The position numbers and the translations under genes were made by a program. The notes under the pieces are model-generated. The model did no database searches, was not told the origin of the DNA, and worked only from the letters and a program-made list of their open reading frames with translations. From Nanobdellati archaeon (lineage in GTDB: Archaea; Nanobdellota; Nanobdellia; Woesearchaeales; JAADFO01), in assembly GCA_013152815.1 (NCBI GenBank), contig JAADFO010000026.1:1-38893 (forward strand): a stretch of 38,893 bases of DNA, read 5' to 3'. Positions within the stretch are counted from its first letter, which is position 1. Each line of letters begins with the position of its first letter. This document shows, piece by piece, positions 1 through 13,699 of the stretch.

Positions 1-1244
1 CCGGTAATGTCCTCGACGTTGCTGGTCGGCTTGTTTTTTGTAGCTTCTGCAATGAGCCGATCGACATATTCCCTGGCCTCCTTTGCCTGTGTCGCGAAGC
101 GTCTGATCTGCTGGGACTTCCGGATCAGCTCTGCCCTCGTCTGGAGATAGCCTGCATCGATATATCCTTGATAATAGTCCTCGATAAGCGCCGGCGTGAT
201 GTAACGGCCGACGCTCCTGAAGGAAGGATCCTGTTCTCCGGTGAGCTTGACTGCCTGAAGGACCAGCTGCTGACCGCTCACCATGGCCGCATAGGCAAGC
301 TCTTCGCCGGCAGCGTATCTGCTGAACATCTGCAGGTCATCCTCGAAACGCCCGATGGCCCAGGCGATGGATTTCTCTGGTTCGAAACGGTCATCGTTAT
401 GCGGCGTGCACTTTGCCTGGGTGCGGCATTGTTCTCCCTGACAGTCGCAGGGGACGATGTTCTCGATGAAAGAGGGATGTGCAGTGATAAGGCTGTAGCA
501 GATGGGGATGATGCCTGCACAGCCAAGATCCTCATCGATATGGAGGGGATCGCCCCTGCTGCTTGCCGCGATAAGAGCCAGGATCTCTGAGCTGTTGGCA
601 AGGCCCCGGCTTTGTTTCTTCAACTGTTCGTCAACCGTTTCTTTGTAAAGGAGACTGACCTTGCGTATCATGTTGCCCTGGTCCTGCGGGATAAGGTATT
701 CATTGAGCGGCTGGCCGGAAAGGCCCATGCGGATGTCCTGTGACGATACGCCCATCACCCTGTCCTGGTCTGCATAGAGATGGAATGTTTTGGCAGGTAT
801 GGTGTCGGGAAAGGCCTGATCAATGTCTGCTTGGAGTCGGGGTGCAAGGTAGGCTGCCAGTGCCTGTCCGGGCGGAGAGCGGAGGCAGCTTGTCTTTTCC
901 CTGTTCCAGAGGTTGAGTCCTGCATAGGTGCCGCAGGGAGAGACAGAGAGGAAACCTCCGTTCCTGCCGAGGGGAAGCGCTGCCTCGAAGACCGCGTATT
1001 TTGCCGTGGAAGCAAGGGTGAACTGGAGCTCTTCACCGGCCTGATAGGTCCTGAAGAGGTCGGTTGATTTCTTGCCGATAGAGACATCGAGCCCTTGTTT
1101 CTCGTCGGTATATTTGTCGTTGAACAGGAAGATGGCTGCGGTGAAGATGAAGAGGACACCTATGAAGATGAAGACGATGAAAAACCGCGCCCGCTTTCCC
1201 AGGGGCCTTCTCTGTTTGTGTTGGTGTTTCATGGCGTTTGCCAT
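1..1244 (-). CDS. Prepilin-like membrane-anchored protein with a degenerate (probably inactive) SLT lytic transglycosylase domain; 3' end runs off the window
   Basis: Not in the ORF track; translated by hand from ATG 1244, open to the window edge: MANAMKHQHKQRRPLGKRA/RFFIVFIFIGVLFIFTAAIFLF...ILALIAASSRG...CAGIIPIC...CDCQGEQCRTQAKCTPHNDDRFEPEKSI...AAMVSG...VLQAVKLTGEQDPSF. Colinear with the SLT domain of 3696..5231, with Ser (codon 563-561) at the catalytic Glu position. Confidence 0.85.
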   Translation of the reverse strand, partial: MANAMKHQHKQRRPLGKRARFFIVFIFIGVLFIFTAAIFLFNDKYTDEKQGLDVSIGKKSTDLFRTYQAGEELQFTLASTAKYAVFEAALPLGRNGGFLSVSPCGTYAGLNLWNREKTSCLRSPPGQALAAYLAPRLQADIDQAFPDTIPAKTFHLYADQDRVMGVSSQDIRMGLSGQPLNEYLIPQDQGNMIRKVSLLYKETVDEQLKKQSRGLANSSEILALIAASSRGDPLHIDEDLGCAGIIPICYSLITAHPSFIENIVPCDCQGEQCRTQAKCTPHNDDRFEPEKSIAWAIGRFEDDLQMFSRYAAGEELAYAAMVSGQQLVLQAVKLTGEQDPSFRSVGRYITPALIEDYYQGYIDAGYLQTRAELIRKSQQIRRFATQAKEAREYVDRLIAEATKNKPTSNVEDIT

Positions 1245-1260
1245 CTTGTTATCGTGGTAT

Positions 1261-1914
1261 TCATATCGGAAATGTGCCTGCGAAGAGCATCCAGGTGGTC
1301 AGTGTTATCTTTATGGGAGTGTGGTCAAGGCCAGGGAGATAGATGACAGCCACGGCCTTGTCGCCCTCTTGCGGAACATAGATGGACGGGCCGGTGGGAC
1401 TGCTGCCGACAGCATTGGATACAGACTCAGCATAGGTCTGGGCCTTGTCCCAGAAATAGGAATAGCCGAAGTTCGCATTGAGGGTGTCGCTGTATTCGAT
1501 ATCGAGGTTCCAGAACTGCCCATATCGCTGGAAGAACATCTCCTTGGCCTTCTCCCTGACGATGGCCAGGCGTTCGTCCTGATATTGGCCGAGGATGATG
1601 AGATCGGCCAGGGTGAGTGTCTTGTCGAAGACATCGGCACCTCCTGCGCCGGCAAAGGCCACGCCAGAACCCTGGTCTGCCGGTGTCCTGAGGAACGTGA
1701 GAAGCGCGGTGTCAGTATTGAGGGACAGAGCATCCTGGTTGATTTTCTGGTCTGGCCGGTCCTTGAAGACAGACAGCATGATGATGAAAAGAGCTGCTAC
1801 GAGGATGATGCCCAGCAAGGCAAAGGAATCAGGCAGGACCGTCGCCTGGGCACGCTTCCTGGTTCTCGTTCTTCCTCTTCGTTCGGGGATTTCTGTTCTC
1901 TTCATACGCATCAT
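1261..1914 (-). CDS. Class III signal peptide (pilin-like) hypothetical protein
   Basis: Basic leader ending RKRA/Q, then hydrophobic helix FALLGIILVAALFIIMLSVF; co-oriented within the cluster. Confidence 0.75.
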   Translation of the reverse strand: MMRMKRTEIPERRGRTRTRKRAQATVLPDSFALLGIILVAALFIIMLSVFKDRPDQKINQDALSLNTDTALLTFLRTPADQGSGVAFAGAGGADVFDKTLTLADLIILGQYQDERLAIVREKAKEMFFQRYGQFWNLDIEYSDTLNANFGYSYFWDKAQTYAESVSNAVGSSPTGPSIYVPQEGDKAVAVIYLPGLDHTPIKITLTTWMLFAGTFPI

Positions 1915-1955
1915 CGGACTTGTTCTGTTATGTTTCGTGTTTCTGATGCCTATGG

Positions 1956-2501
1956 CTAACTGCTGGGCATCAGCACATCAAATTTCAGGTATCCTGGTAT
2001 GAGACGCTGCCGGTAGCGGTCCCAGATGAGGATGTTGCGGGTTTCCCGCACCCTTGCGCTCGAACCCTTTCCAGAGAAGCCCGCGAGGACATCCCATCGG
2101 TCGTACCATCGCCTGTTCAGATAGATGGGCGGAACATAGTCCTTGCGTTCTGGGGATGCCCTGGAACCGGCAGCGTGGAGCGTTATCTTTGCGGCGATGA
2201 TCTTGTTCGGGTGCGTGAAATTGATGGCCTGGGCCAGCCGTCGGTCGGTGAAGTATAAGGGGTCGACGATGCCAGGGTGGCTCGAAAGCCCGTCATCATA
2301 GGTGAAACCGTGGGGGGAGAAGTATATCCGGTTGATCAGTGTGGCAGCCTTTGCCGGCTGGTCGTGCAGGGAGATGTTGGCGAACCACACGATGGCAGCA
2401 TTCGCCAGCACAAAGACGATGACCAGGACCATCAGGTTGATGATCCACCAGGTGAATTCGAAAGCAACTCCTCGCCTGCCCAACCGAAGACGGCTTGCCA
2501 T
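1956..2501 (-). CDS. Class III signal peptide (pilin-like) hypothetical protein
   Basis: MASRLRLGRRG/VAFEFTWWIINLMVLVIVFVLANAAIVWF; start overlaps the upstream stop (TGATG at 2501). Confidence 0.8.
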   Translation of the reverse strand: MASRLRLGRRGVAFEFTWWIINLMVLVIVFVLANAAIVWFANISLHDQPAKAATLINRIYFSPHGFTYDDGLSSHPGIVDPLYFTDRRLAQAINFTHPNKIIAAKITLHAAGSRASPERKDYVPPIYLNRRWYDRWDVLAGFSGKGSSARVRETRNILIWDRYRQRLIPGYLKFDVLMPSS

Positions 2502-3520
2502 CAGGGACCCACCTTCTTTGGGAAATAATCAAGGATTGCCGTGTCGATGGCATGGGCAAGGGGCCCGGGAGATGACGTGATGCTCAGTTGAGGATCCGCC
2601 CGGCTGTTGCCTATCTCGAGATAGACAGCGAGAGGGTTGCCTGCATAGAGTTCTGGTTGGTTCCCCGGCAGGACAGCGGTGCCTTGCAGCTGGGGGAAGG
2701 CGGCCTGTATCTCGTTGAGGATGCGACAGGCAAGATGTTTTGAAGGACGGAAGCGGCTGTCCCGCGGTTGCGGCACATAGGCGACCACGTCCTCAACAGC
2801 CGGATCTGCATTTGCACCCTGGTGGAGGGAGAGCATCACCAGGTTGCCCTGCATCTTCTGGTAACGCTCCTTATCTGTCGGCCGGGACTGCCTCGAACGG
2901 GTGGCAGAGGCAGGATACCCTGTTCCTGTACCGAGCAGCGCACGGGTGATGCTCCAGGTGAGCGCCCGTTCAGACGATGTCGCAAATCCCGGATCGATGA
3001 TCACCTTGATCTGCGCCAGCGGTGTTGATGAACGGCTGCCGCAATCCATCAGACGCAGAGAGACTTTAGGGTCATCCTTGTCGAACACGAGCAGGGTGTT
3101 CTCCTGCTTGGCCATGGCAAGGGAGGTGAGGACCCCCTTGTCGTGCAACGAGTAGGCAGTATCCTGGCCGTAGGGATAACGGAAGGGAAGGATGCTCTTG
3201 TCGTCCCTGATGGAAACGGTATCGTTGGAGAAGTTCAGCGTATATCGGTCGAGAGGCGGAGGGTAGTAGAGCTCAAGATTTCCAGGTGCAGCATAGACCG
3301 CAGAGGTAAGCAGACCGATGTCCCGCACATAGTATATCTTGTTGAAGTAGGTGGAGTCGCTGACACTTGCCATGTTGCCGTAGAGGACGACGACAACCAT
3401 CACCACGAGAACTGTCTGAAGAGCCATGATAAAGAGGTCTGTATCTCCGTCTGCGTCTTTCCGCTTCCATAGCGATGCAGCAGTTGCCCTATTTCCAGCA
3501 TGCCCCTCTTTTGACAGCAT
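2501..3520 (-). CDS. Membrane-anchored pilin-like protein with C-terminal Amidase_3 (N-acetylmuramoyl-L-alanine amidase)-like domain, first Zn ligand lost
   Basis: Start moved to ATG 3520, about 25 nt downstream of a TATA box; the ORF-track extension translates a U-rich terminator. WKRKDA is followed by a TM helix. The C-terminus has Amidase_3 motifs in order: KVIIDPGF (normally IDPGH), SERAL, ATR...ER, LSLHQ, SKHLA, AVYLEIGN, LAHAIDTAILDYF. Confidence 0.75.
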   Translation of the reverse strand: MLSKEGHAGNRATAASLWKRKDADGDTDLFIMALQTVLVVMVVVVLYGNMASVSDSTYFNKIYYVRDIGLLTSAVYAAPGNLELYYPPPLDRYTLNFSNDTVSIRDDKSILPFRYPYGQDTAYSLHDKGVLTSLAMAKQENTLLVFDKDDPKVSLRLMDCGSRSSTPLAQIKVIIDPGFATSSERALTWSITRALLGTGTGYPASATRSRQSRPTDKERYQKMQGNLVMLSLHQGANADPAVEDVVAYVPQPRDSRFRPSKHLACRILNEIQAAFPQLQGTAVLPGNQPELYAGNPLAVYLEIGNSRADPQLSITSSPGPLAHAIDTAILDYFPKKVGP

Positions 3521-3540
3521 GAAGAATTCACAGCAAAGAG

Positions 3541-3560
3541 CATTTAAATACTTTTGGTCG
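3541..3560 (-). promoter_or_regulatory. Putative archaeal BRE/TATA promoter for a leaderless transcript starting near ATG 3520
   Basis: Minus strand reads CGACCAAAAG-TATTTAAATG, about 25 nt upstream of ATG 3520. Confidence 0.55.
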
Positions 3561-3647
3561 GTGGCTGACGCTCCCAAGAACATGACGAGAGGGAGAGAGA
3601 AAGAGCAGAAAGGGATGAAAAAAAAGAGGGGTGAGAGAAACCGGGGC

Positions 3648-3676
3648 AGGAAAGAAAAAGAAAAAAAGAAAAGAAA
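3648..3676 (-). terminator. Putative oligo(U) archaeal terminator
   Basis: Long T/C tract on the minus strand just after the stop of 3696..5231. Confidence 0.5.
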
Positions 3677-3695
3677 CCGAACAGCAGCAGACATG

Positions 3696-5231
3696 TCAGG
3701 TGATGGTGGTGCCTATCTTCTGTTCAGCGAGTTCCTTGTATGCCAGGACCCTGGGGACGTACTGCGCAGTCTCGGCTGGAAGGTATGCTGAGACCTCGGC
3801 GAAAGAGGGGTTGGCCTTTCCGGTCTTTCGGATCGCCTTGATGACAGCGCCGGGTCCTGCGTTATAGGCTGCGATGACGAAGGAAAGATAATCAGGTGAT
3901 GTGTGATATGCAGCGAGATATTGGGTGGCGAGCTTGTTGAGGTAATTGATGCCCGAACGGATGGCCCGGTCGGGATTGAAGCGGTCGTCGTTGGCTGGCC
4001 CGCAGCGGGGACTGATGCATGTCCCTGCAACACGGCTCGCCGGCTTCAGGCAGGAACAGGCCGTAAGGAATGATTCCCTGAAGCCGCCGATGACCCCATT
4101 CTCCTGGGAGTTCTCCTTTGCGGTCGCGTAGGTGAACTGCATAAGCCCCGCAGCGTCTGCAGAGGATACTGCATCGGTTCTCCCCGCGCTCTCAGTGAGG
4201 ATGTGCCCCAGGATAAGAGAGGGGGTGATGCCTTCATAGGAGGGGGCCTGTGTGTGCATCGCATCAAGGATGGTGGGGAGATATGCTGAGATCGCCTGAT
4301 CCATGGTCTTGCTGCTGCCGCTTCCGAGGATGACATTTCCTGCCAAGGGGATGGAGGAGAGCGTGTCGATCTCTTTCTTTCGCGCACCGAGAAAATCCTT
4401 GCTCGCTTCATCCTGGATAGCACCGTAGAGATAGACAAGACCCTGCTGATCCGGATCTGCATAGCGCATGTCCATCTTATCGAGATAGAGTCGCTGGCTG
4501 TTCCAGGTCCCGCATTCATCGCCGTAGATGACAAAGTAACCGTAGGGCGCCTTGTCCAGGACGGCATTGCCGCTCTTTACATCGACCTGACGATGGATGC
4601 CGCAGAATCTTGGCTCCTCCTTCGATCGATAATGGGAGATGAAGATGACCTCGCTGGAAAAGGTCCTGCAGTCGAGGATGTTGGTGTCCTGTTCAGACAG
4701 GGAATTCTCCTTGATGTCACCCTGGTAGAGACAAAGACATGCCTGGTCGCCGCATCGTAACGGCCGGATGATGGGACCGTCGGTATCGCCTTCCTGGACC
4801 AATGCCTGCCCATGGACCTGCAGCGAATCCCAGCCTCTGTCAAAACCGACGATCGCATATCCTGGTGGAAGCGAAAGCGTGGTGGTGGTCTCTTCATATT
4901 GTCGGGTGCTGCCGAGAAGGGCATCGATGTTCCTGGCGAGCCCCTCGAAATTGTTGGTGGCTGCCTGCTGTTCGGAGGAGGATCCTGCGCTCATCGCCTG
5001 GAGCACGTGGGGGACGAGGAAGACGATGAGCACTGCGCCCAGAAGAAGATAGAACGTCTGGTTGAGGAGATAGTGTCCTTCTGCTTTCTTGTCTCCCCTG
5101 TCTCTCCTGCCAGAAAAGGAGAACCTTCTTGAGGGCCGAGAACGACTCCAGGAAACCCGTTGCCCTGTCCGCGGCTGCGTCTGAGGATCGCTCAACTGTT
5201 TTCTGGACTCCTGCCGCGTCAGTAGGTGCAT
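3696..5231 (-). CDS. Prepilin-like protein: conserved six-Cys carrier domain plus C-terminal SLT (GH23) lytic transglycosylase
   Basis: DKKA/EGHYLLNQTFYLLLGAVLIVFLV leader. SLT motifs intact: ILTES (catalytic Glu, codon 4193-4191), AGLMQF, AAYNAG, ETAQYVPRV. Start placed at ATG 5231 (GGAG upstream; overlaps the end of the previous gene). Confidence 0.9.
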   Translation of the reverse strand: MHLLTRQESRKQLSDPQTQPRTGQRVSWSRSRPSRRFSFSGRRDRGDKKAEGHYLLNQTFYLLLGAVLIVFLVPHVLQAMSAGSSSEQQAATNNFEGLARNIDALLGSTRQYEETTTTLSLPPGYAIVGFDRGWDSLQVHGQALVQEGDTDGPIIRPLRCGDQACLCLYQGDIKENSLSEQDTNILDCRTFSSEVIFISHYRSKEEPRFCGIHRQVDVKSGNAVLDKAPYGYFVIYGDECGTWNSQRLYLDKMDMRYADPDQQGLVYLYGAIQDEASKDFLGARKKEIDTLSSIPLAGNVILGSGSSKTMDQAISAYLPTILDAMHTQAPSYEGITPSLILGHILTESAGRTDAVSSADAAGLMQFTYATAKENSQENGVIGGFRESFLTACSCLKPASRVAGTCISPRCGPANDDRFNPDRAIRSGINYLNKLATQYLAAYHTSPDYLSFVIAAYNAGPGAVIKAIRKTGKANPSFAEVSAYLPAETAQYVPRVLAYKELAEQKIGTTIT

Positions 5232-6565
5232 GCATACTCCCCCTTGGCCCTTCGTTCCATCGCCAGGTTCCATTGGGGCGTGCCCATCTCAAAATGCCAT
5301 GGTTCCCCTGAAAACCTGACAAACCCCGCCTGGCACATCACCGATTCCACCCGGGCGGGATCCATGTTGTTGAGGTTCCTTCCTGCGCCGTCATATATGA
5401 CAATGTCGATGGCCCCGCCGCTCATGTGGGGGCAGGGCTGTTGATTGTCGACAGAACCAGGATAGCAAGCAAGGCTGCAATGATACGGCCGGCCATTATG
5501 GTGTTTGGTCTTATAACATTGGTAGAGATCGTTCTGGATGTTCCAGTCCCTGTACGCCTGGGTGATGACCATGCGGTAGTTGTGATGGGAGCTTGTGGGA
5601 TCTTGGAAGTCGGTGGAAAGTTTCTCGAGCGCGTCGCGGACCGGAGGGATGGCCTTGCATATCTTGCCGAAATCGGTATTGGTCTCGTCACAGGTGATGC
5701 CGGGAATGCCCTGGATGCTCACGAGCTGGCTCGTATCGATGGTATAGTGGGTCTGTGGCAGATAGGTTACCAGCGTAGCGATGCGGTCCCTGACGGAATC
5801 ATCCTCTATGGCGCCGTAGATGAATATCCTGGAATCGGTGCTCTCTGGATCGGGATTCTGATCACGGAGCCGCTCAAGATAGAGCTTTTGGGCATCCCAT
5901 TGACCGCATTTATCCCCATAGATGACAAAGTAGCCGTAGGGTCCTGTCTTGAGAGGTTCGTCGAGGCCGGAAAAGACCAGCTGCCTTCGTGTCCCACACA
6001 TGCGTGGCTTAGCATCCTGCTGATCATCAATCGGATCGACAGGCCGCTGATACCTGCTGATGAAGCTCACGTCGCCTGCAAAGGGTATGCACTGCACCAC
6101 ATGGACATCCCGCTGGGACAGATCGTTCTCTTTGATGTCGTCATCATAGAGGCAGATGCACGCTGCATCACCACAGGCGCTGGGTTTGAAAAAAGCTCCG
6201 CCGTTGCGATAACGGTCCGCCTGCGTATGGCTGCCAGAGATGCGTTTCCAGTTCTTGTCAAAGCCGACGATGGCATACCCCCCGCGGAGGCTCAGGGTCG
6301 TATCCCGATAGCCGTAGTCTGGTCCGTCGAGAAGCGCCTGTATGCTGTTGCCGAGACCGTTAAAATTGTCGATGGTTGCCTGGGTCTCTGCATCCTTGGA
6401 ACCCGGAGTCCCGAGAAAGCTCGTTATGATCGGCAGGATCATCAGGATGGCCAGACCCGCGAGCAGGAGTTGCAACACCTCAAACAGCGTTATCGCGCCC
6501 TTTTTTTCATTAGCTCGTCGTCGCACCAGTATCCCCCGTCCTGGCAGGTTCTCCGAGGATGTCAT
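5219..6565 (-). CDS. Prepilin-like protein: same carrier domain plus C-terminal M15-family Zn peptidase (VanX/VanY-like D-Ala-D-Ala or related cell-wall peptidase)
   Basis: EKKG/AITLFEVLQLLLAGLAILMILPII leader. M15 motifs AYR...Q..LY, PHMSGGAID (His and Asp ligands) and GF...EPWHF (catalytic Glu, His ligand) are intact. Exact start uncertain. Confidence 0.88.
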   Translation of the reverse strand: MTSSENLPGRGILVRRRANEKKGAITLFEVLQLLLAGLAILMILPIITSFLGTPGSKDAETQATIDNFNGLGNSIQALLDGPDYGYRDTTLSLRGGYAIVGFDKNWKRISGSHTQADRYRNGGAFFKPSACGDAACICLYDDDIKENDLSQRDVHVVQCIPFAGDVSFISRYQRPVDPIDDQQDAKPRMCGTRRQLVFSGLDEPLKTGPYGYFVIYGDKCGQWDAQKLYLERLRDQNPDPESTDSRIFIYGAIEDDSVRDRIATLVTYLPQTHYTIDTSQLVSIQGIPGITCDETNTDFGKICKAIPPVRDALEKLSTDFQDPTSSHHNYRMVITQAYRDWNIQNDLYQCYKTKHHNGRPYHCSLACYPGSVDNQQPCPHMSGGAIDIVIYDGAGRNLNNMDPARVESVMCQAGFVRFSGEPWHFEMGTPQWNLAMERRAKGEYACTY

Positions 6566-6788
6566 TTAGTGAATCCCTGCTGTGGTCAGATTGTTGGATG
6601 GTCGAATTGATCGTGGGAGCGAGTCCGCCCTGGATGATCTTCTCCCAGAAGAGCGAATAGGTGATGTAGAGCAGGATGCCCAGGACGACAAGGATGAGGA
6701 TCATGTCCCCCACCGTGCTGAAACCGAACATGGCCTTCTTCGGAAGACTCTTCCTTGTATGTTTTGATCGAAATCTCATGACATTCAA
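6510..6788 (-). CDS. Small class III signal peptide (pilin-like) protein
   Basis: PKKA/MFGFSTVGDMILILVVLGILLYITYSLF; GGAGG immediately upstream in the previous gene's end. Confidence 0.7.
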   Translation of the reverse strand: MNVMRFRSKHTRKSLPKKAMFGFSTVGDMILILVVLGILLYITYSLFWEKIIQGGLAPTINSTIQQSDHSRDSLNDILGEPARTGDTGATTS

Positions 6789-7063
6789 CCTCCTTTTTTA
6801 TCCGGAGCAGAGATGCAGCAGATATTTTCTCCTGTGCAGCCTATCTTTCCGAAACGTAATGGCCCGCACTCTGATGGTGCCTTACAGCTGGCGCCTTTGA
6901 ACTTGCTTGGGCAGTCATCGATGCTTGATGAGAAGAGCGATGACTTGTTGACGATGATGGCGATGGTCACGATAAGGACGATAAGGACGATGGCCGCGAT
7001 CACGATGGTGTTGAGGCTGATGCCCTGTGCCTGTTTTTGTTGTCTCAACAGCTGTTTTCTCAT
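6785..7063 (-). CDS. Short pilin with six-Cys head
   Basis: Start moved to ATG 7063 (TAATG overlap, GGGGTGAG SD). MRKQLLRQQKQAQG/ISLNTIVIAAIVLIVLIVTIAIIV, then C-x8-C-x5-C-x9-C-x5-CC; paralog of 10893..11135. Confidence 0.85.
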   Translation of the reverse strand: MRKQLLRQQKQAQGISLNTIVIAAIVLIVLIVTIAIIVNKSSLFSSSIDDCPSKFKGASCKAPSECGPLRFGKIGCTGENICCISAPDKKGG

Positions 7064-7707
7064 TAGCTCACCCCGGTGATGATGCAGGTGTCGCTTGGCC
7101 GCAGGGTATGATCTCCGGCGATGCGCTTGCTGCTGTCCATTTTGATAAGGAGATGATAGTTGTGTTTCAGGAACCCCCATCCTGGCTGATAGATCTTCAG
7201 GGAGATCTTGGAATGGTCATCGGGATCTGCGAACATCGGGCGGAAAAGCGCGGGATCTTCCTCCATCTTGTCACCGAAGACCTCTTGGGGGGTGCTCCAG
7301 TCAGATTCCTTTACGAGGAAGAGCGGGTTGCGATAGGATACCTTGATGTGCATCCAGGGAATCTTTCCGTCGAGAGGGTCATTGAGGTCCTCTGAGAAGG
7401 AAAGCAGGATGGTGTCCTCAGATATCTTGTCCTTGGTCGGCTGGTAGGCAAAATCCTTGACCGTGCAATCCCGCACCGGAAGCTCTGACGGTTCCCTGTG
7501 CAGAAGACAGACATTTTTAGGGAGGCAGGGTCCGCTTAGGTCATCCTGGACTGTATCTGCGAGCCCCACGAGATTAAGGCCCCCTTTCCAAAGGGGGACC
7601 ATATAGGTGGAGATGATGAAATACAGCACCCCCGCAACAATCAATAGGAGAATAAACTTGATGGCAACTCCATAACCCTTCAAGTCTCCTTCTCCTCTTT
7701 TGTTCAT
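7063..7707 (-). CDS. Class III signal peptide (pilin-like) hypothetical protein
   Basis: MNKRG/EGDLKGYGVAIKFILLLIVAGVLYFIISTY; stop coupled to the next start. Confidence 0.8.
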   Translation of the reverse strand: MNKRGEGDLKGYGVAIKFILLLIVAGVLYFIISTYMVPLWKGGLNLVGLADTVQDDLSGPCLPKNVCLLHREPSELPVRDCTVKDFAYQPTKDKISEDTILLSFSEDLNDPLDGKIPWMHIKVSYRNPLFLVKESDWSTPQEVFGDKMEEDPALFRPMFADPDDHSKISLKIYQPGWGFLKHNYHLLIKMDSSKRIAGDHTLRPSDTCIITGVS

Positions 7708-7755
7708 CTTTCATGACCCGCTTATCTTTCTGGCGTTTTCTATCGTTTTTGTCTC

Positions 7756-7920
7756 TTAGTTGCCGAATTGAAACACTCGGACGATGTGATCCATAAGGCT
7801 GACCAGGTCTTTCCTGGTGAGCACGAGGAGACCGATGATAGCAGCAAGAAACCCCAAAGCGACCATCCACTTCACAACAGTGGACTCGAGGAATGCTTTC
7901 CTTCCTTTTATGCGTTTCAT
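7756..7920 (-). CDS. 54-aa mini-pilin (not in ORF track)
   Basis: Hand translation MKRIKGRKA/FLESTVVKWMVALGFLAAIIGLLVLTRKDLVSLMDHIVRVFQFGN*; fills the gap in the cluster; TATA-like CTTTTTATT near 8012-8020. Confidence 0.75.
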   Translation of the reverse strand: MKRIKGRKAFLESTVVKWMVALGFLAAIIGLLVLTRKDLVSLMDHIVRVFQFGN

Positions 7921-8086
7921 GTCGGTTCACTTCGCATGGTCTGTTCAGGCAACATCCTGCCCGAGGACGGGACAGGGCCACTGAAGGCCAAATCATCTAT
8001 CCCGACGCAACAATAAAAAGCTATCGGTGGTTTTAAGCTTGGCCGGCCCCGCTTTTTCCTCGCGACACATATCAGGAATTGCCAAT

Positions 8087-9022
8087 TCAGGACACATCCT
8101 CTGCTGTGAAAGACTGCTTGACAGGGAACTCCCGGCATCCCAGCTCCTTCAGCTTTGCCTTGTCATACTCGATGATGGTGAAGAAGGTGAAATATTCCTT
8201 GTCAGGCCTGCTCCGATCTATGAAATGGTCATAGAGCTGATCAGCAGCAAAGGCCACGCCGCCTGCCACCAATAATGCCCAGCCGATGGGATTTGTCAGG
8301 CTGCCGATGATGAGGACGGCTGCACCTGTTCCGCCCACGACCGATGTTACCACAATGGTCCCCTTGTTGCGGGCTGCCCAGGCAATGGCCTCCTTCATGA
8401 ATTGGATGCCCACTGCATGGATCATGACAAAGGCATATTTTTTTGAGGTGTCAAGCCCTTTGCCTCCTGCAAGAGAAGGTTCCTGGACGAGGGCTTCGCC
8501 GAACTGCTCTGCTGCCTTGGGCGAGACATGACCTTCGCAATAGTCGAGATAGGAAAGGTCACTCTTGCCGACATGCCTGGTCGCCAGATACTCCTGCAAT
8601 CCGTTGATTCTCGTCTTTCCTGGCGGGTCGAAGGACACCACCGAATCGACGGCACAGTATATCCCATCATCCTTGAACAGGGGTTCCTTCCCTCGCAGAT
8701 AATGGTCACAGAGAGGATAATAATAGTCCTCAGCGAGGATCTTCTTGACCTGCTCTGGATCGGTTTGGGTGATGGTGTCGTAGCGGGTGGGGCAGTTGAT
8801 GTTCTCGAAGAGATCGTTGCCAGAGAACTGGCCGAGGAGATGCAGTTCCACGCTCTTTTTGCAACCCAGGGAAGAGGTGATGGAATCTGCCTGCTGGCCG
8901 ACCCTGTTGACGATGGTGACGAGCAGGATGAGAAGCGTGAACAGCCCTATGATGAACCAGACCGTGATCGTCTGCATGGCTTTTCTGCCCATCCTTGGTG
9001 CTGTTGGTATCGTCGATGTCAT
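8087..9022 (-). CDS. Pilin-like Cys-containing protein with C-terminal Gly/Ala-rich hydrophobic hairpin
   Basis: GRKA/MQTITVWFIIGLFTLLILLVTIV; body resembles 9054..9962; C-terminal segment TIVVTSVVGGTGAAVLIIGSLTNPIGWALLVAGGVAFAA. Confidence 0.8.
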   Translation of the reverse strand: MTSTIPTAPRMGRKAMQTITVWFIIGLFTLLILLVTIVNRVGQQADSITSSLGCKKSVELHLLGQFSGNDLFENINCPTRYDTITQTDPEQVKKILAEDYYYPLCDHYLRGKEPLFKDDGIYCAVDSVVSFDPPGKTRINGLQEYLATRHVGKSDLSYLDYCEGHVSPKAAEQFGEALVQEPSLAGGKGLDTSKKYAFVMIHAVGIQFMKEAIAWAARNKGTIVVTSVVGGTGAAVLIIGSLTNPIGWALLVAGGVAFAADQLYDHFIDRSRPDKEYFTFFTIIEYDKAKLKELGCREFPVKQSFTAEDVS

Positions 9023-9053
9023 GGTGTCTTTGGTCCTGCAGCCAGAAGCTTGT

Positions 9054-9962
9054 TCATCGATCTTTCATAGGTGATGGCGCGTTGACGAAGAGGGAGCAGA
9101 AGGGCATCATCATCTTGTCGCCACCCACGATGATCTCCACCGGCTTGGTCGGGGAGAACTCGGGAGGCACGAGGTAAATCCCGCCGATGGCGTGACATTC
9201 TTCGCAATCAGTGAAGGGATAGGTGAGAGGAAACGAGGAAGCCAGGGAACCCCAGAAATCCTCCCAAGGCCATGGCCCGGCATCTGTGATGGAGAAATAT
9301 CTGCTGAGTTTTGTCTGAAGTTTCACCATCTGCAGGATGATCTGCGAGCCATCCTTTACCTCCTGCTCTGTTCCCTTACGGGCATTGCTGAAGTCTGCCT
9401 TTTTCGGATCCTGCTTGTAGAGGTACTGCCAGTAGCTGTGGTCCTTATCGAACGGGCCGTTATGGCCTGTGAGATAGCGTTCCAGGCCAGCTATCTCGGG
9501 TTTCTCCATGGAACGCAGGTAGGGAAGCAGTGATTTATCGAACCAGATAGTGTCGCAATAGAAGCAGATGGGCCTGTCCTTAAGGTTCCAGTCAGAGAAC
9601 GGATCATACTTTCCTGCGCCCACCGTATCCCAGCACTGCGCCATGGCATCGGCGACGAGCTTGTTGGCCTTGTCTGTATCGATTGCCGTGCGCTCTTTGT
9701 TGAGAACATTGTTGGTTCCCTTGGTATCGAGGATAACCTCTCCCGGCTTGCAGTCGACCGAATAGAACGTATTCGACCCCAGCGGATTGACGGATTTCCC
9801 GAGATAGGTCAAAAAGATGCCTCGTTTGCATGCTGCCTTATCGCTTGCCCGGGAGATGGTGTTCAGGCTCTTCCCGAGGATCGGCACATAGATGGCGAAA
9901 CTCAGCAGGAGTATGACCAAGAGGACAGTGAACGTCGATAGGGCCTTCTTCCCCCGGATCAT
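9054..9962 (-). CDS. Pilin-like Cys-containing protein, paralog of 8087..9022
   Basis: Start moved to ATG 9962 (ATGA overlap with the upstream mini-pilin): MIRGKKA/LSTFTVLLVILLLSFAIYV; ADAMAQCW...G.GK..PF...CFYCDTIWFD...GLERYL. Confidence 0.8.
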   Translation of the reverse strand: MIRGKKALSTFTVLLVILLLSFAIYVPILGKSLNTISRASDKAACKRGIFLTYLGKSVNPLGSNTFYSVDCKPGEVILDTKGTNNVLNKERTAIDTDKANKLVADAMAQCWDTVGAGKYDPFSDWNLKDRPICFYCDTIWFDKSLLPYLRSMEKPEIAGLERYLTGHNGPFDKDHSYWQYLYKQDPKKADFSNARKGTEQEVKDGSQIILQMVKLQTKLSRYFSITDAGPWPWEDFWGSLASSFPLTYPFTDCEECHAIGGIYLVPPEFSPTKPVEIIVGGDKMMMPFCSLFVNAPSPMKDR

Positions 9963-10081
9963 GGTGCCGACCCCAGAAATATCTTTTTGACGATGATATA
10001 GACGAAGACAAAGAAGGTTATGATAAGGACAAGATAGATGATGGTCTCCAGACCCGGCACTTGCCCTTTTTTTCTGGTCAT
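9959..10081 (-). CDS. 40-aa mini-pilin (not in ORF track)
   Basis: Hand translation MTRKKG/QVPGLETIIYLVLIITFFVFVYIIVKKIFLGSAP*; GGAGG SD; ATTTAAAT box at about 10128-10135; stop overlaps the next ATG. Confidence 0.8.
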   Translation of the reverse strand: MTRKKGQVPGLETIIYLVLIITFFVFVYIIVKKIFLGSAP

Positions 10082-10241
10082 GGTTGCTCAGCCTCCAAGA
10101 AGCACAACCCATCTGAGGAGTATCCTAATTTAAATGCTGCGATTTATGGGGCGGATCTTACAGGAAAACAGGCAAGGAGGGGGATGAAGATGAGCAGCAG
10201 CGCCAGGAAAAGGATGATGATACTGGAAAAGCGGGCATTGG

Positions 10242-10485
10242 TCAACTCTTGATGCCGAGAGAGATGCAGCATTTCTGGTCAGAGAGCTGACAGTCGGTGT
10301 TGGGAACGATGGGACCCTGGCATGAACCGGTCACACAGCTCCCCCCTTTGGTCGTGCAGGAAACAACATCCTCAGAGAAGATATTGATCTTTCCTGAAAA
10401 GATGGCGACAAGCACCACGAGCACGATAAGAGCGATGGCAGCAACGATGATGGTCGTGATGGATGGAAATGTCGGCTTTTTTCAT
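10242..10485 (-). pseudogene. Short six-Cys pilin, frameshifted (or mis-assembled) just after the signal peptide
   Basis: ATG 10485 gives MKKA/DISI, then TCCATCCATCACG carries a 4-nt duplication. Removing it restores MKKADISITTIIVAAIALIVLVVLVAIFSGKINIFSEDVVSCTTKGGSCVTGSCQGPIVPNTDCQLSDQKCCISLGIKS. Confidence 0.75.
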
Positions 10486-10786
10486 GGGGGCATCATCATA
10501 GGAGCATCGGTTAGCACCACAGAGCATCATGACCTGCAACAGTCCTCGAAGGAGGAACAATCTATCCAACCGCCTGAGGGGGGAAGGATTGTGGGGCCGC
10601 AGGAACTGTCTCCGTTGCTTTGCTTAGCCTTGCATATCCCGCCCTGAGCACCACAGACATTGTCCTGTGTGCCTTCGGTGGTTGAGCTGTATCCTTCAGA
10701 GAAGATATTGATCTTTCCTGAAAAGATGGCGACAAGCACCACGAGCACGATAAGAGCGATGGCAGCAACGATGATGGTCGTGATGG
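10372..10786. repeat. Perfect 91-bp direct repeat (10372..10462 and 10696..10786) encoding the shared pilin N-terminal helix
   Basis: Base-by-base comparison: tcagagaagatattg...atggtcgtgatgg is identical in both copies. Confidence 0.95.
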
Positions 10787-10799
10787 CAGCTCGTTTCAT
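10527..10799 (-). CDS. Short pilin with six-Cys head
   Basis: MKRA/AITTIIVAAIALIVLVVLVAIFSG, then C-x6-C-x10-C-x13-C-x5-CC. Confidence 0.85.
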   Translation of the reverse strand: MKRAAITTIIVAAIALIVLVVLVAIFSGKINIFSEGYSSTTEGTQDNVCGAQGGICKAKQSNGDSSCGPTILPPSGGWIDCSSFEDCCRS

Positions 10800-10892
10800 G
10801 GTGGCATCAGGATTCAGGCACGTCTCGATTCAAATGGACATCATATCGCCGAGGACAACAGATGAAAAGAAAAAAGGAAAAGAGGTGCGATG

Positions 10893-11135
10893 CTATGCCT
10901 TGACACAGCAGACCTGATTGGAATCTGCAGGGCAGGACCAGGCATCATACTGTATCGAATAGGTGCTGTCGCAGGCATCCAGGCATTGGCCTCCTTTGTT
11001 CTGACAATCTGCTGTCTGCTCGGAGAAACTGCCTATCCTTCCCAGGAAGATCACTGAAAGGACCACCAGGACAAGGAGGGCTATGGCTGCAATGATAATG
11101 ACGTTCATAGAAATTCCCTGGGCTTTCTTAAGCAT
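10893..11135 (-). CDS. Short pilin with six-Cys head; candidate major pilin
   Basis: MLKKAQG/ISMNVIIIAAIALLVLVVLSVIF; C-x6-C-x3-C-x12-C-x7-CC; strong SD GAGGTGAT (11148-11141), own TATA box, U-rich tract after the stop (10862-10885). Confidence 0.88.
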   Translation of the reverse strand: MLKKAQGISMNVIIIAAIALLVLVVLSVIFLGRIGSFSEQTADCQNKGGQCLDACDSTYSIQYDAWSCPADSNQVCCVKA

Positions 11136-11174
11136 TGAATATCACCTCGGTATGATGATTTCTTGCATGAACTC

Positions 11175-11187
11175 ATATATAAAGGTT
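11175..11187 (-). promoter_or_regulatory. Putative TATA box heading the pilin cluster
   Basis: AACCTTTATATAT on the minus strand about 40 nt upstream of ATG 11135; the divergent CTATATAAAT at 11303-11312 would serve PCNA. Confidence 0.6.
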
Positions 11188-11364
11188 ATGTTGGGTGCGA
11201 AAGAGAGGCCGTCCTTATCTGAACCCCACATACCTTTCAATATGGAAAAGAATGCCCGGCCCCTGGAAAAAGGTTGAAAACCGTCCAGGAAACAGCAATA
11301 AACTATATAAATCCTCAAGAACCACCCAAACCCGGCATTTTAGTAAAGACCCGGGGGAATCATC

Positions 11365-12105
11365 ATGAAATTGACACTCACTGAACCCAAGTATCTCAAG
11401 GACTCCATCACCATCATCTCTGAGCTCGTCAACGAAGCCAGGTTCAGGGTGACCAAAGATGCTATCGAACTGGTGGCCATGGATCCGGCCAATGTCGCCA
11501 TGGTCATCTTCAAGCTTCTTGCTTCGAACTTCACCGAATATCAGGTCGAGAAGGATGCCGACATCTCCATCAATCTCTCGAACTTCAAACAGATCCTTCG
11601 CCGGCTCAACAGCACAGACATCCTGACCCTGGAACTGGAAGAGAACAAGCTCAAGGTCGAGATGAAGGCAAAGACGAAGAGGACATTCCACCTCCCGCTC
11701 ATAGAGATGGAGGAGAAGGAACAGAAGATCCCTGATCTCAAGTTTCCTGTCAGTGTCACCATCCCCTCGTCGGCATTGAATGAAGCGGTGGAGGATGCCG
11801 ACATCGTCGCAGAATCCCTGGCGTTCATAGCATCGAAAGGCCTGTTTGTCGTGGAAGCAGAAGGCGACCTCAACAAGGCAAGGGTCGAACTGACCGCGGA
11901 TGATGACACCAAGATCGACATAGAAGGGGATGACATCAGATCACGCTACTCCATCGAATATCTCAAGAAGATGATAGCCGGTTCGAAACTCTCTGACAAG
12001 GTAGAGCTTAAGTTCAACAAGGACTACCCGCTCAAGATAGAATACAAAGCACTTGACAAGGTCTTCCTGGGATTCATCCTCGCACCAAGAGTCGAGAATG
12101 ACTAA
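11365..12105 (+). CDS. pcn: DNA polymerase sliding clamp (PCNA)
   Basis: 246 aa; AMDPANVAMV, YSIEYLKKM, DYPLKIEY, FILAPRVE. Confidence 0.97.
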   Translation: MKLTLTEPKYLKDSITIISELVNEARFRVTKDAIELVAMDPANVAMVIFKLLASNFTEYQVEKDADISINLSNFKQILRRLNSTDILTLELEENKLKVEMKAKTKRTFHLPLIEMEEKEQKIPDLKFPVSVTIPSSALNEAVEDADIVAESLAFIASKGLFVVEAEGDLNKARVELTADDDTKIDIEGDDIRSRYSIEYLKKMIAGSKLSDKVELKFNKDYPLKIEYKALDKVFLGFILAPRVEND

Positions 12106-13579
12106 GAGAAGGACGCAAAGGACAAAGCTGATCCTGGTTCTCATCCTGCTCGTCGCCTTTCTTCTTCGTCTGACAGCGCTCGGCGCAGAAGACATCTGGA
12201 TAGATGAAGCGTATTCTGCCGCAGAAAGCCAACACGGCATCGCGAGGATATGGAACAGCAACGACCCCACACCCCCCCTGTATTATGTGTTCTTGTATTT
12301 CTGGATGGGCCTTTTCGGCAGCAGCGTGTTCATGCTTCGTCTTCTGTCGGTATTCTTCGGGACGCTTCTCGTGCTGGCAGGATACGCTCTTGCCCGACAT
12401 CACTATGACGAAAAGACAGGGCTCCTTGCTGCAGCGCTTCTCGCCTGCAGTCCGGGGCTGATCGCAGCATCCCAGAATGCCCGATCCTATGCGCTCTTCT
12501 TCCTCCTTGCGACGCTGTCGACCTATATGTATGTCCGGTGGAAAGAGAGGGATGCCGCAGGAACACGCGGCTGGTATATCTTGACGAGCACGGCAATGCT
12601 CTACACCCATCCCTTCGGCGTGTTTGTTCTCCTGGCCCAAAACCTTCATTTCTTCACGGTCATCGCTCATTCCGAAAAAAAAGAGGCAAAAAAAGAGGCA
12701 AAGAGACAGGAACCCAAACAGGGAATTGCCGGCTGGGCAGGAATACAGGCAGCGATCTTCCTGCTGTTCGTCCCCTGGCTCCTGCGTCTGCCGGGGATCA
12801 TCCAGACCGGAACGCTCGGTTGGCTCCCTCGCCCGACTCTCGCCTATGGCATCACGACAACGCTTACACTCATCGAAGGAACAATCTATTCACGTATCGG
12901 AGCCGTGACAGGAGTTCTTGTCCTGGGGCTCCTTGTATTGCTGTTGAGCCAACGATCGACAGACGAAAAAAAGGGAAACGCAGACGGCCTGTTGCTCTGG
13001 TATTGGCTCCTGGCGTCCTATCTTGTGCCGTTCATCCTGGCACTCATCTTCATACCGGTGTTCACCACAAGATATGTACTCATCGCGGCCATCCCCCTGC
13101 TCATATTGGCAAGCAGAGCGATAATAACGCAGAAAAAGACCGCGCGAAATGTGCTTGCCGTTATGCTCGTCACGTCGCTTCTCCTCATGAGCCTGTTCCC
13201 GTTGCAAAGCACCATGAACCCCCGTTGGAGCGAAGCCGCAAAGGTTCTGGAAGAACGACGGGCAGCAGACGAACCGCTCATCGTGTTGCCTGCCTATGAG
13301 GTGCTGTCATTATCGTACTATCTGTTACCTGCTTGTTTCCAGGCAACCGACCGAGAGCGATGCTACCAGAAAAAGGGTCTGGTGGCACTGCATAGTCCGG
13401 AGCAGGCAAGGCAACTGGAAGGCAGAGACTATTGGCTGGTGCGTACGTCCGGTCTCACGAGCCAGAATATCGGCCTTCTGATGGACACGTTGCAGGAAAG
13501 ATATGATATTGATTCGGTCAGGGCACATCAATCAGGACAACCAACATATGCTGCTTCGTCTTTTCTCCTGGGCCCTTGA
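12098..13579 (+). CDS. GT-C fold membrane glycosyltransferase (PMT/GT39-ArnT-like)
   Basis: LRL..LG...IWIDEAYS, PPLYY, LRLLS, SQNARSYAL, many TM helices; ATG 12098 overlaps the PCNA end. Confidence 0.85.
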   Translation: MTKRRTQRTKLILVLILLVAFLLRLTALGAEDIWIDEAYSAAESQHGIARIWNSNDPTPPLYYVFLYFWMGLFGSSVFMLRLLSVFFGTLLVLAGYALARHHYDEKTGLLAAALLACSPGLIAASQNARSYALFFLLATLSTYMYVRWKERDAAGTRGWYILTSTAMLYTHPFGVFVLLAQNLHFFTVIAHSEKKEAKKEAKRQEPKQGIAGWAGIQAAIFLLFVPWLLRLPGIIQTGTLGWLPRPTLAYGITTTLTLIEGTIYSRIGAVTGVLVLGLLVLLLSQRSTDEKKGNADGLLLWYWLLASYLVPFILALIFIPVFTTRYVLIAAIPLLILASRAIITQKKTARNVLAVMLVTSLLLMSLFPLQSTMNPRWSEAAKVLEERRAADEPLIVLPAYEVLSLSYYLLPACFQATDRERCYQKKGLVALHSPEQARQLEGRDYWLVRTSGLTSQNIGLLMDTLQERYDIDSVRAHQSGQPTYAASSFLLGP

Positions 13580-13699
13580 CTTCAAGACCCTGAACAGAGG
13601 CAACCTTACAATCGAACATCTGAAGAGAAGGCCCGCCACAGGATAAGGAGGAGGGGATGGACCGTATGTTGCGATCATGGACGAACAGGAAAGAAAGGG

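Follow-up and report, generated by a model that had tools for sequence, protein, structure and literature searches.

Positions 1-11135 of contig JAADFO010000026.1 hold one half of a conserved Woesearchaeota operon, whose probable function is to display murein hydrolases against bacteria on the cell surface in dependence on type IV filaments; signal cleavage, filament assembly, enzyme activity and the bacterial target are what we infer for it from the genes. The operon suggests that these tiny uncultured archaea come into physical contact with bacteria, to attack them, attach to them or feed on them. The window (the whole stretch of DNA analysed, 38,893 nucleotides) is the entire contig, and the operon's leftmost gene, w1, runs into the contig edge, where it is cut and the readable sequence stops. 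Fifteen co-directional minus-strand genes fill positions 3-11135, one fewer than the 16 prepilin-like genes counted in an earlier note on this DNA, which had rightly placed them all on the minus strand (15/15). In the list below, motif-positive refers to a signal rule that requires [KR][GA] and, no more than 10 residues after it, an 18-aa window with a mean Kyte-Doolittle hydropathy of >=1.8.

w1, 3..1244, minus strand: 414 aa, 3' end truncated by the contig end; class-III-like N-terminus, conserved w1-family N-domain, degenerate SLT-like domain
w2, 1261..1914, minus strand: 217 aa, pilin-like, motif-positive; no known domain
w3, 1956..2501, minus strand: 181 aa, pilin-like, motif-positive; conserved in relatives
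w4, 2501..3520, minus strand: 339 aa; pilin-like N-domain and divergent Amidase_3 domain
w5, 3696..5273, minus strand: longest ORF 525 aa; long basic leader, KKA site, helix, conserved 'NNF' N-module, SLT lytic transglycosylase
w6, 5219..6565, minus strand: 448 aa; KKG site, helix, N-module as in w5, M15/VanY-type LAS metallopeptidase
w7, 6510..6788, minus strand: 92 aa, pilin-like, motif-positive
w8, 6785..7063, minus strand: 92 aa, small pilin, six-Cys knob
w9, 7063..7707, minus strand: 214 aa, pilin-like, motif-positive; no known domain
w10, 7759..7920, minus strand: 54 aa, leader and helix only, motif-positive
w11, 8087..9022, minus strand: 311 aa, pilin-like, motif-positive; conserved in relatives
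w12, 9054..9962, minus strand: 302 aa, pilin-like, motif-positive; conserved in relatives
w13, 10242..10484, minus strand: small pilin paralogue, beta-defensin-like six-Cys knob
w14, 10527..10799, minus strand: 90 aa, small pilin, six-Cys knob, motif-positive
w15, 10893..11135, minus strand: 80 aa, small pilin, six-Cys knob, motif-positive; the operon's first gene and candidate major subunit

The database gene call for w5 starts at 5231, against a longest ORF of 3696-5273, and w4 has the length of database protein P0152. The ATG of w13 lies one base off the pilin reading frame, a break that is either an assembly error or the mark of a pseudogene. BLASTP matches to w3 occur at the equivalent operon position in five relatives (1e-18 to 2e-9), those to w11 (5e-16 to 1e-13) and w12 (5e-24 to 1e-9) in three relatives each, and w2 weakly matches one relative's locus (L022:6065-7699, 1.7e-8).

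Pilin-type N-termini are strongly enriched in the operon. The signal rule picked out 12/15 of its proteins and 110/1836 other ORFs of the genome (6%; binomial P about 8e-13), the three misses being w4 (Asp at -2), w8 at 6785-7063 (Gln at -2) and the frameshifted w13. By eye, a class III signal could be recognised in 14/15 proteins, plus the frameshifted w13. The leaders of w2, w4, w5 and w6 are about 20-40 residues, unusually long for class III signals. The N-modules of w5 and w6 are homologous (E 8e-54, 34% identical) and belong to a family of 293 representatives, in which [KR][GAS] immediately precedes the helix in 117/149 and fusion to a hydrolase is rare (3/146 by Pfam). AlphaFold2 models of w5 and w13 begin with an N-terminal helix and continue into a beta-rich head: w5 has helices at 10-38 and 44-65 and then strands, with block pLDDT values of 84-98 over residues 11-90 and mostly of 84-98 as far as residue 250 (median near 91), apart from two blocks at 91-110 that dip to 60-70, while w13 has a helix at 8-38 and then short strands. 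None of the operon proteins matched a pilin family above cut-off in Pfam or NCBIfam. A pilin fold was not demonstrated, because neither search with the whole 469-aa model of w5 (Foldseek and VIA-align) gave an informative match, helices alone being matched. What the sequences do support is that these are proteins with class III (prepilin-like) signals, fused to real homologues of peptidoglycan hydrolases.

The clearest of the fused heads is the SLT domain (PF01464) of w5, which scored 71.2 bits in Pfam against a cut-off of 21.3, carries a 40-aa insertion with four Cys, and aligns with E. coli MltE at the E-S, GLMQ and AYNAG motifs; the identity of the catalytic Glu of MltE is assumed here. The Pfam scores of w6 were below cut-off (Peptidase_M15, 23.3 bits against 27; VanY, 13.7 bits against 25), and it is classed as an M15/VanY homologue rather than a Pfam member on the strength of profile and motif evidence. 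A three-sequence profile matched YodJ (3e-5), Ply500 (9.8e-4) and VanX (7e-3) with motifs aligned, and H-x(6)-D and E-x-x-H, which we take to be the zinc and catalytic motifs of M15/VanY enzymes, do not vary among w6, P0002 and the L022 orthologue. Although w4 had no direct Pfam match to Amidase_3 (PF01520), it is homologous to that family by hhalign against 12 orthologues that pass the Pfam cut-off (99.9%, E 1e-32, 310 columns). Its first zinc His is replaced by Phe and the other three motif residues are kept, assuming zinc ligands His-Glu-His and a catalytic Glu for Amidase_3; all four are intact in 10/26 aligned members of the w4 family. The SLT-like domain of w1 had no Pfam match but resembles the C-terminal half of w5 (BLASTP, 6e-9), with Ser in place of the catalytic Glu and degenerate GLMQ and AYNAG motifs. 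Of the four domains proposed earlier as wall-active (SLT, M15, amidase, second SLT), only two, the SLT of w5 and the M15 of w6, look catalytically intact, while those of w4 and w1, with the zinc His and the Glu lost, are probably non-catalytic.

The small subunits w8, w13, w14 and w15 end in a six-Cys knob resembling beta-defensins. The similarity is most evident in w13, where the Beta-defensin family (PF00711) scored 23.5 and 22.6 bits against a cut-off of 21, and the cysteines are spaced exactly C-x6-C-x4-C-x9-C-x6-CC. The six Cys align in 26 members of the small-pilin family, in which 1/29 passes the defensin cut-off and four more have sub-threshold matches to defensin families. Foldseek rows for w13 at E<=10 were mostly beta-defensins, the remainder being alpha-defensin 5, crotamine and a tick carboxypeptidase inhibitor, with a best E of only 1.2 (TM 0.56 by target, rmsd 2.4, 31 columns). 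In an Atlas structure search, chordate beta-defensin clusters took 4/10 rows, all below the bar.

A survey of synteny, which the earlier note had called for, showed that the hydrolase-carrying operon recurs across the order. The family of the amidase-bearing member w4 was present in 141/201 sampled genomes, and 16/25 w4 orthologues matched Amidase_3, 12 of them above cut-off. Within 10 kb of w4 and on the same strand, an SLT gene was found in 27 genomes and an M23 gene also in 27, giving at least 49 genomes with one or the other (counted by hand); neither family was matched in any of four archaeal control genomes (0/4). Other hydrolases sit at matching operon positions in relatives (glucosaminidase with VanY, M23, SLT, C39_2), and the orthologue at the w1 position carries SLT in one locus (L025) and M23 in another (L026). 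The other half of the operon was located on contig C30, where four pilin-like genes come after the gene of a 6207-aa Ig-repeat protein, and in relatives four more pilin-like genes, preceded by a giant Ig-repeat protein, lie next to the operon. This arrangement of four pilin-like genes with a giant Ig-repeat protein recalls minor pilins plus an adhesin.

The order-wide recurrence of an operon whose hydrolase heads are interchangeable is evidence for selection on the design, and weighs against a chimeric contig, which the earlier note had listed as a possible refutation. Such an artefact, including bacterial contamination joined to archaeal genes, could be suspected since the hydrolase families are bacterial in origin and the assembly is fragmented into 76 contigs (90.8% complete). 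It is nonetheless extremely improbable: the contig also carries PCNA, which starts 230 bp away from the operon, GC is even across 1-19 kb (0.49-0.59), the contamination estimate is 0.74%, and the orthologous operons of relatives adjoin archaeal RPA and YdjM genes. The archaeal flanks named earlier (PCNA, PolD, histone, EndA) were all identified on the contig, PolD as both DP1 and DP2, and Cdc6 as well; its closest relatives are MAGs of Ca. Woesearchaeota.

Another substrate of the hydrolases might be the cell's own envelope. Bacterial trans-envelope machines often encode an SLT enzyme, the NCBIfam matches include a flagellar lytic transglycosylase, and the genome has one gene of the Mur-ligase family. 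However, neither a PBP transpeptidase nor a SEDS polymerase was found in this genome (90.8% complete), and the Mur-ligase model also finds matches in archaeal control genomes, including M. jannaschii and H. volcanii, neither of which makes murein, so remodelling of the cell's own envelope is very unlikely. Alternatively, free or dead-cell peptidoglycan could be digested for amino sugars and amino acids, live cells not being breached. DPANN genomes are poor in biosynthesis. This poverty, also indicated in the available part of PMC8204110, speaks for scavenging, as does the combination of several bond specificities in one operon. Against it, AnmK, the user of the SLT product 1,6-anhydro-MurNAc, was not found in the 90.8% complete genome, and surface tethering fits contact better than bulk digestion; scavenging is thus an improbable explanation.

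The machinery that a type IV filament needs is encoded elsewhere in the genome, in agreement with the earlier statement that ATPase, platform and prepilin peptidase lie outside the region. There is one A24 prepilin peptidase (PF01478; contig C73, 54.6 bits), while T2SSE ATPase (PF00437) occurs in four places (C44, C33, C27 and C63) and T2SSF platform proteins (PF00482) number four, two each on C33 and C44. Since the prepilin peptidase and two ATPase/platform loci (C44 and C33) are encoded, the refutation by missing type IV pilus assembly genes, also raised in advance, fails. Contig C44 carries about nine pilin-like ORFs as well. Neither an ATPase nor a platform gene adjoins the operon, here or in five relatives examined, and this leaves room for another explanation, namely bindosome-like or membrane-anchored ectoenzymes, in which the pilin-type signal only delivers, anchors or releases proteins, without an extended pilus and with bacterial murein still the target. 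Heads of up to 450 aa, bulky for a shaft, and the lack of a pilin fold match are consistent with this, and class III signals have been documented on sugar-binding proteins of Sulfolobales and proposed widely, according to the part of PMC13705601 available. On the other hand, the operon holds several subunits of 75-90 aa, a size typical of shaft pilins, and the extra genes of relatives behind the giant Ig-repeat protein are like minor pilins with an adhesin. Ectoenzymes are a possible alternative, and the less likely one.

In the preferred reading, that of filament-dependent display, the single prepilin peptidase of C73 would cut each precursor after [KR][GA], and the ATPase/platform machine of C44 or C33 would pull the N-terminal helices from the membrane. 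The shaft would be formed by the small 75-90 aa subunits with their disulphide knob, and the larger proteins would be minor or tip subunits. Of their C-terminal heads, one is a lytic transglycosylase and one a stem-peptide peptidase of the M15 type; the other two, amidase-like (w4) and SLT-like (w1), are derivatives of murein enzymes that are probably non-catalytic and may do no more than bind the wall. Upon meeting a bacterium, the heads would open the peptidoglycan locally, for attachment, access to the cell contents, or killing. Counting against this reading are the lack of an adjoining ATPase or platform gene, the residues lost from two heads, the rarity of hydrolase fusions in the N-module family, the uninformative fold searches, the long leaders, and the use of class III signals on non-filament proteins in Sulfolobales.

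No description of a pilin-type operon displaying murein hydrolases was found in the literature searched, but several known systems share parts of it. We know of no bacterial pilins with murein hydrolase heads. The minor-pilin sets of bacterial type IV pili as well as type II secretion (PilY1-type tip adhesin) are similar in having four pilin-like genes beside a giant adhesin-like protein, small major subunits and one shared prepilin peptidase, but no sequence or fold match between bacterial pilins and the operon proteins was obtained. The Sulfolobales bindosome (PMC13705601, October 2026), as presented in the available part of that paper, consists of substrate-binding proteins that bear class III signals, an example of such archaeal signals serving non-filament surface proteins, and 'functionalised type IV filaments' are proposed there. 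It resembles the Woesearchaeota operon, so far as that part goes, in having functional non-pilin domains that follow a class III signal and a hydrophobic helix, with genes away from the ATPase and platform and a base machine that is presumably shared. It differs, on the same partial account, in that the Woesearchaeota heads are murein hydrolases, not solute-binding proteins, and are encoded together with many small pilins in a single large, conserved operon to which no ABC transporter is linked; peptidoglycan, hydrolase, murein and enzyme have 0 occurrences in the main text. Archaeal peptidoglycan hydrolases were described by Strock et al. 2025 (PMC12352652), with an antibacterial role shown for haloarchaeal enzymes. 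There, too, archaea without murein of their own encode secreted bacterial-type hydrolases, but with Sec and Tat signals only, in contrast to the class III signals found here; 'pilin', 'pili', 'class III' and 'type IV' are absent from the main text, and SPIII, Woesearchaeota and Nanoarchaeota from 12 of the 13 supplementary files. Closest in lineage, enzyme family and suggested wall attachment are the large extracellular SLT-domain proteins of Woesearchaeota and Pacearchaeota, for which Castelle et al. 2021 (PMC8204110), in the part available, suggested attachment to bacterial walls. These form one family of very large proteins, and that part of the paper mentions neither a pilin-type signal nor an operon nor amidase, M15 or M23 partners ('Pili', 0 occurrences).

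A wider and rather doubtful reading would see a contact-dependent antibacterial filament, with beta-defensin-fold knobs on the shaft, interchangeable hydrolase minor subunits (SLT, M15, M23, amidase, glucosaminidase), and a giant Ig-repeat adhesin on four minor pilins that selects the prey. If true, this would make the knob the first non-animal trans-defensin-like domain, one that might bind precursors of the wall, and much of the order would have bacteria, not archaea, as hosts or prey.

Few uncultured archaea are as widespread as the Woesearchaeota, and an order-wide operon gives a concrete, testable mechanism for contact between archaeon and bacterium. For biochemistry, it offers a set of murein hydrolases from archaea and what may be a beta-defensin-like domain from a prokaryote. 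The idea of functionalised type IV filaments would be widened beyond the binding of nutrients to attack by enzymes, and the operon indicates that the hosts or prey of Woesearchaeota are bacteria.

Positions 3 to 11135 of the window hold an operon of 15 genes, numbered here w1 (3-1244) to w15 (10893-11135), all on the minus strand, separated by 0-280 bp or, in four places, overlapping. The earlier note had counted 16 prepilin-like genes on this strand; the strand was correct and the count is 15. Gene w1 is truncated by the contig end, and w10 (7759-7920), at 54 aa, falls under the usual ORF threshold. An ORF at 7574-7996 (140 aa), overlapping w10 in a different frame, was dropped as a probable non-gene, having neither a helix nor a family. 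The genome comprises 1.49 Mb in 76 contigs (completeness 90.8%, contamination 0.74%), and the window is one of these contigs, C26, in full. In substance the original observation was borne out: the operon is conserved, with pilin-type N-termini and murein-hydrolase homologues, and is a real feature, not a chance pattern.

In every product a leader rich in Lys and Arg is followed by a [KR][KR][GA]-type site and then by a hydrophobic helix, which in w13 lies in a shifted frame. A mechanical rule ([KR][GA] and then, at most 10 residues on, 18 aa averaging ≥1.8 in hydropathy) picked out 12 of the 15 proteins, compared with 110 of the 1836 ORFs in the rest of the genome (binomial, about 8e-13). The claim that all of these N-termini are prepilin-like was matched by the rule for those 12; it missed w4 and w8, in which position -2 is Asp and Gln respectively, and w13 with its frameshift. 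The leaders of w2, w4, w5 and w6, at about 20-40 residues, exceed textbook class III signals. In an AlphaFold2 model of w5, helices at 10-38 and 44-65 precede a beta-rich head, with block pLDDT mostly 84-98 as far as residue 250, dipping to 60-70 at residues 91-110; the SLT part was of low confidence (pLDDT 33-55 over approximately residues 300-400) and was left out of use. The w13 model has a helix at 8-38, then a beta-rich head. Family-profile searches found no pilin family match for the operon proteins, and Foldseek and VIA-align searches with the whole w5 model matched helices only, giving no informative pilin-fold match, so the label 'pilin-like' rests on the signal, the predicted helix-plus-head architecture and the operon context. 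A pilus that displays murein hydrolases against bacteria is a plausible reading of these sequences, and the likeliest one. Its main rival, a bindosome-like array at the cell surface that forms no extended filament, is possible and rather unlikely.

Four products carry a C-terminal domain (head) related to murein hydrolases. In w5 this is an SLT domain (71.2 bits, Pfam cut-off 21.3), which retains the E-S, GLMQ and AYNAG motifs when aligned to E. coli MltE, and contains a 40-aa insertion with four Cys. The w6 head lies below the Pfam cut-offs (Peptidase_M15, 23.3 vs 27 bits; VanY, 13.7 vs 25 bits); a profile of w6 and two homologues, which share unvarying H..D and E..H motifs, matched YodJ of B. 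subtilis (3e-5), the phage endolysin Ply500 (9.8e-4) and VanX (7e-3). No direct Pfam match was found for w4, which aligned to 12 orthologues passing Pfam Amidase_3 with an hhalign probability of 99.9% (E 1e-32, 310 columns); Phe replaces its first zinc His, and all four Amidase_3 residues are kept in 10 of 26 aligned family members. The w1 head resembles w5, the SLT protein, in the C-terminal half of the latter (6e-9); Ser stands in place of its catalytic Glu, and its GLMQ and AYNAG motifs are degenerate. PDB sequence searches gave no match for whole w6, the w4-family profile or w1, and word-index protein searches returned two matches for w6 (one self), one for w4 (self) and three for an alignment (A4). 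We take the catalytic and zinc residues to have the roles described in the literature for the SLT, M15 and Amidase_3 families. Because the motifs are kept in w5 and w6, and a catalytic or zinc residue is replaced in w1 and w4, the SLT and M15 heads look active, and the amidase-like and SLT-like heads look like non-catalytic derivatives. The initial description of four peptidoglycan-active domains thus held for the SLT, M15 and amidase homologies and for the motifs of w5 and w6, and failed for w4 and w1 at their key residues.

Hydrolase heads recur in relatives, at equivalent places in the operon. Amidase_3 was matched on 16 of 25 w4 orthologues at E≤0.01, and over the cut-off on 12 of the 25. 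The w1 orthologue has SLT and a weak trypsin-like match at one relative's locus (L025) and M23 at another (L026), while at L029 another protein carries Peptidase_C39_2. Of the 201 genomes in the order sample, 123 have SLT and 92 have M23, and neither matched any of four archaeal control genomes. Among the matches listed, SLT lay within 10 kb of w4 in at least 27 of the 65 genomes with both, always on the same strand and mostly 1.4-4 kb downstream; M23 did so, on the same strand, in at least 27 of 62 genomes, and one or the other was near w4 in at least 49 genomes (union, hand count). These counts are lower bounds, as 89 SLT matches lie beyond those listed and many assemblies are fragmented. 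Scavenging of free murein by such proteins is improbable, and ranks below the bindosome-like array.

The w5 and w6 proteins have in common a 270-aa N-terminal carrier domain, the N-module (34% identity, E 8e-54), with different enzymes behind it; at L022 an N-module protein carries glucosaminidase+VanY. An exhaustive profile search gave 293 representatives at E≤1e-3. In nearly all of the 149 retrieved, the match starts near the protein N-terminus, and in 117 of them [KR][GAS] stands just ahead of the first hydrophobic run. Pfam matches on 146 representatives were SLT in 2 (one the window's own protein), glucosaminidase+VanY/M15 in 1, TPR in 6 and a sub-threshold T4SS_pilin in 1, with no domain in 136; hydrolase heads are therefore uncommon on the N-module. 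A Protein Atlas query with the N-module scored at best 0.82, a lead only, with clusters consisting entirely of Nanobdellota hypothetical proteins, and a pattern search of the genome contigs with the N-module alignment gave 37 pattern matches, none of them confirmed.

Four small subunits carry a knob with aligned cysteines:

10242-10481, minus strand: w13, small pilin-like protein with a six-Cys knob
10527-10799, minus strand: w14, small pilin-like protein with a six-Cys knob
10893-11135, minus strand: w15, small pilin-like protein with a six-Cys knob
6785-7063, minus strand: w8, small pilin-like protein with a six-Cys knob

Together with about 25 relatives they are 75-105 aa long, with a signal, a helix and a knob of about 35 aa in which six Cys align. 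The spacing in w13, C-x6-C-x4-C-x9-C-x6-CC, is that of beta-defensins, and Pfam Defensin_beta scored 23.5 and 22.6 bits against a cut-off of 21; among 29 family members scanned, w13 alone exceeded the defensin cut-off, and four others had sub-threshold defensin-family matches. Foldseek with the w13 model (pLDDT 78.4) gave 22 matches at E≤10 and 0 at E≤0.001. Most were beta-defensins, headed by hBD-1 (E 1.2, TM 0.56 by target, rmsd 2.4 over 31 columns), and the others were alpha-defensin 5, crotamine and a tick carboxypeptidase inhibitor. The ESM Atlas, using its own model of w13, returned chordate beta-defensin clusters in 4 of 10 rows and Nanobdellota/Woesearchaeota in 3 of 10, all under the bar. 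The resemblance of the predicted knob to beta-defensins is a consistent lead, statistically weak in both structure searches, in a domain that is tiny and cysteine-driven. Cis-defensins were only recently reported in bacteria (PMC11561630), and a search of the defensin literature by title or abstract found no archaeal beta-defensin-like domain. The ATG of w13 is 1 base out of frame with its pilin frame (10455-10490). Since its N-terminal coding DNA is nearly a copy of that of w14, w13 appears to be either a recent tandem duplicate with an indel (a pseudogene) or an assembly error.

A synteny survey, suggested in the earlier note, found the same gene order at the loci of eight relatives (L022-L029), with BLASTP homologues of w1, w3, w4, w5/w6, w8, w11, w12 and w13-15, and weak ones of w2. 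Of 201 genomes sampled from the order, one of which is unpublished (G355, with a w4-family match), 141 have the w4 family; of 301 sampled from the phylum, 130 have the N-module. In relatives the operon has a further part directly upstream, made up of a gene for a very large protein followed by four pilin-like genes. In the present genome this part lies on contig C30 (3980-25520), where a 6207-aa protein built of Ig-like, Glucodextran_B and CarboxypepD_reg repeats (3980-22603) precedes four pilin-like genes (22587-25520); the block resembles an adhesin accompanied by four minor pilins. RPA-like and YdjM genes directly follow the operon in L022, L025 and L027 but here lie at the far contig end (36660-38176), so the neighbourhood is rearranged in this genome. 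One to three in-frame TAA stops were seen within some w4-family matches (G038:C1:13201-13737 and G373:C12:6329-6790, both from 0.6-0.7 Mb genomes of the same genus; also G311, G389 and G329), which could be pseudogenes or contain a recoded stop.

The PCNA start lies 230 bp from w15, and the contig also carries EndA, histone, Cdc6 and PolD DP1/DP2, so that the flanking genes named at the outset (PCNA, PolD, histone, EndA) are indeed present and archaeal. The 14 nearest DP2 relatives (45-59% identity) are titled Ca. Woesearchaeota (9), 'uncultured Methanosarcinales archaeon' (3) and 'archaeon' (2). A chimeric contig, raised earlier as a possible refutation, is scarcely credible and well below the bindosome-like array, because the archaeal flanks, an even GC content (0.49-0.59 over 1-19 kb), the orthologous operons of relatives and the spread of the w4 family all uphold the join to archaeal genes. 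Elsewhere on the contig, inverted 20-nt repeats (19666-19685 and 20605-20624), which we take to resemble archaeal origin recognition boxes, flank an AT-rich stretch at 19.8-20.6 kb (GC 0.37-0.46). The stretch, which lies immediately upstream of cdc6/orc1 (20684-21886) and has PolD as a neighbour, is probably the replication origin. Two large surface-type proteins with Big_9, cadherin-like and PKD domains are encoded on the minus strand at 28996-33162 (1388 aa) and 33159-35894 (911 aa).

The assembly genes missing from the window were found genome-wide: one A24 prepilin peptidase (contig C73), four T2SSE ATPase matches, and two ATPase/platform loci (C44 and C33), the former contig holding about nine ORFs with operon-like leader and helix N-termini. 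No ATPase gene adjoined the operon in five relatives checked. Remodelling of the cell's own wall is rejected as very improbable, less likely than the bindosome-like array, because neither a PBP transpeptidase nor a SEDS polymerase was found in the genome (90.8% complete; AnmK was likewise not found), and the model matching its one Mur-ligase-family gene also matches the murein-free controls M. jannaschii and H. volcanii. A further SLT protein (C42:4697-5791) has a Sec/Tat-like, not pilin-type, N-terminus, and an M23 protein (C67:1635-2369) adjoins a masked stretch; murein hydrolases therefore exist outside the operon too.

Archaeal murein hydrolases that kill bacteria are already published (PMC12352652); in the passages and 12 of 13 supplementary files compared, these have Sec and Tat signals only, with pilin-type signals unmentioned, whereas the signals here are pilin-type. 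Large SLT proteins of Woesearchaeota and Pacearchaeota have been published (PMC8204110) and mentioned again (PMC10936187). A census of type IV filaments in archaea, dated October 2026 (PMC13705601), proposed that class-III-signal binding proteins functionalise filaments, and called such systems sparse in DPANN; its main text has zero occurrences of peptidoglycan, hydrolase, murein or enzyme, whereas the heads described here are murein-hydrolase homologues. Literature searches on pilins, type IV pili, peptidoglycan and lytic transglycosylases in DPANN or Woesearchaeota found no description of such an operon. Class-III-signal functional proteins and archaeal murein hydrolases are both known; here the two are combined in one order-wide operon.

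For a pilus of this kind, the leaders would be trimmed by the A24 peptidase and the helices extracted by one of the two ATPase/platform machines. The small knobbed subunits would form the shaft, which the larger ones would join as minor or tip subunits. The SLT head would cut the glycan strand of a touching bacterium and the M15 head its stem peptide. The amidase-like and SLT-like heads, which look inactive, may grip the bacterial wall. In relatives these roles would fall to heads of the M23, glucosaminidase and active amidase kinds.
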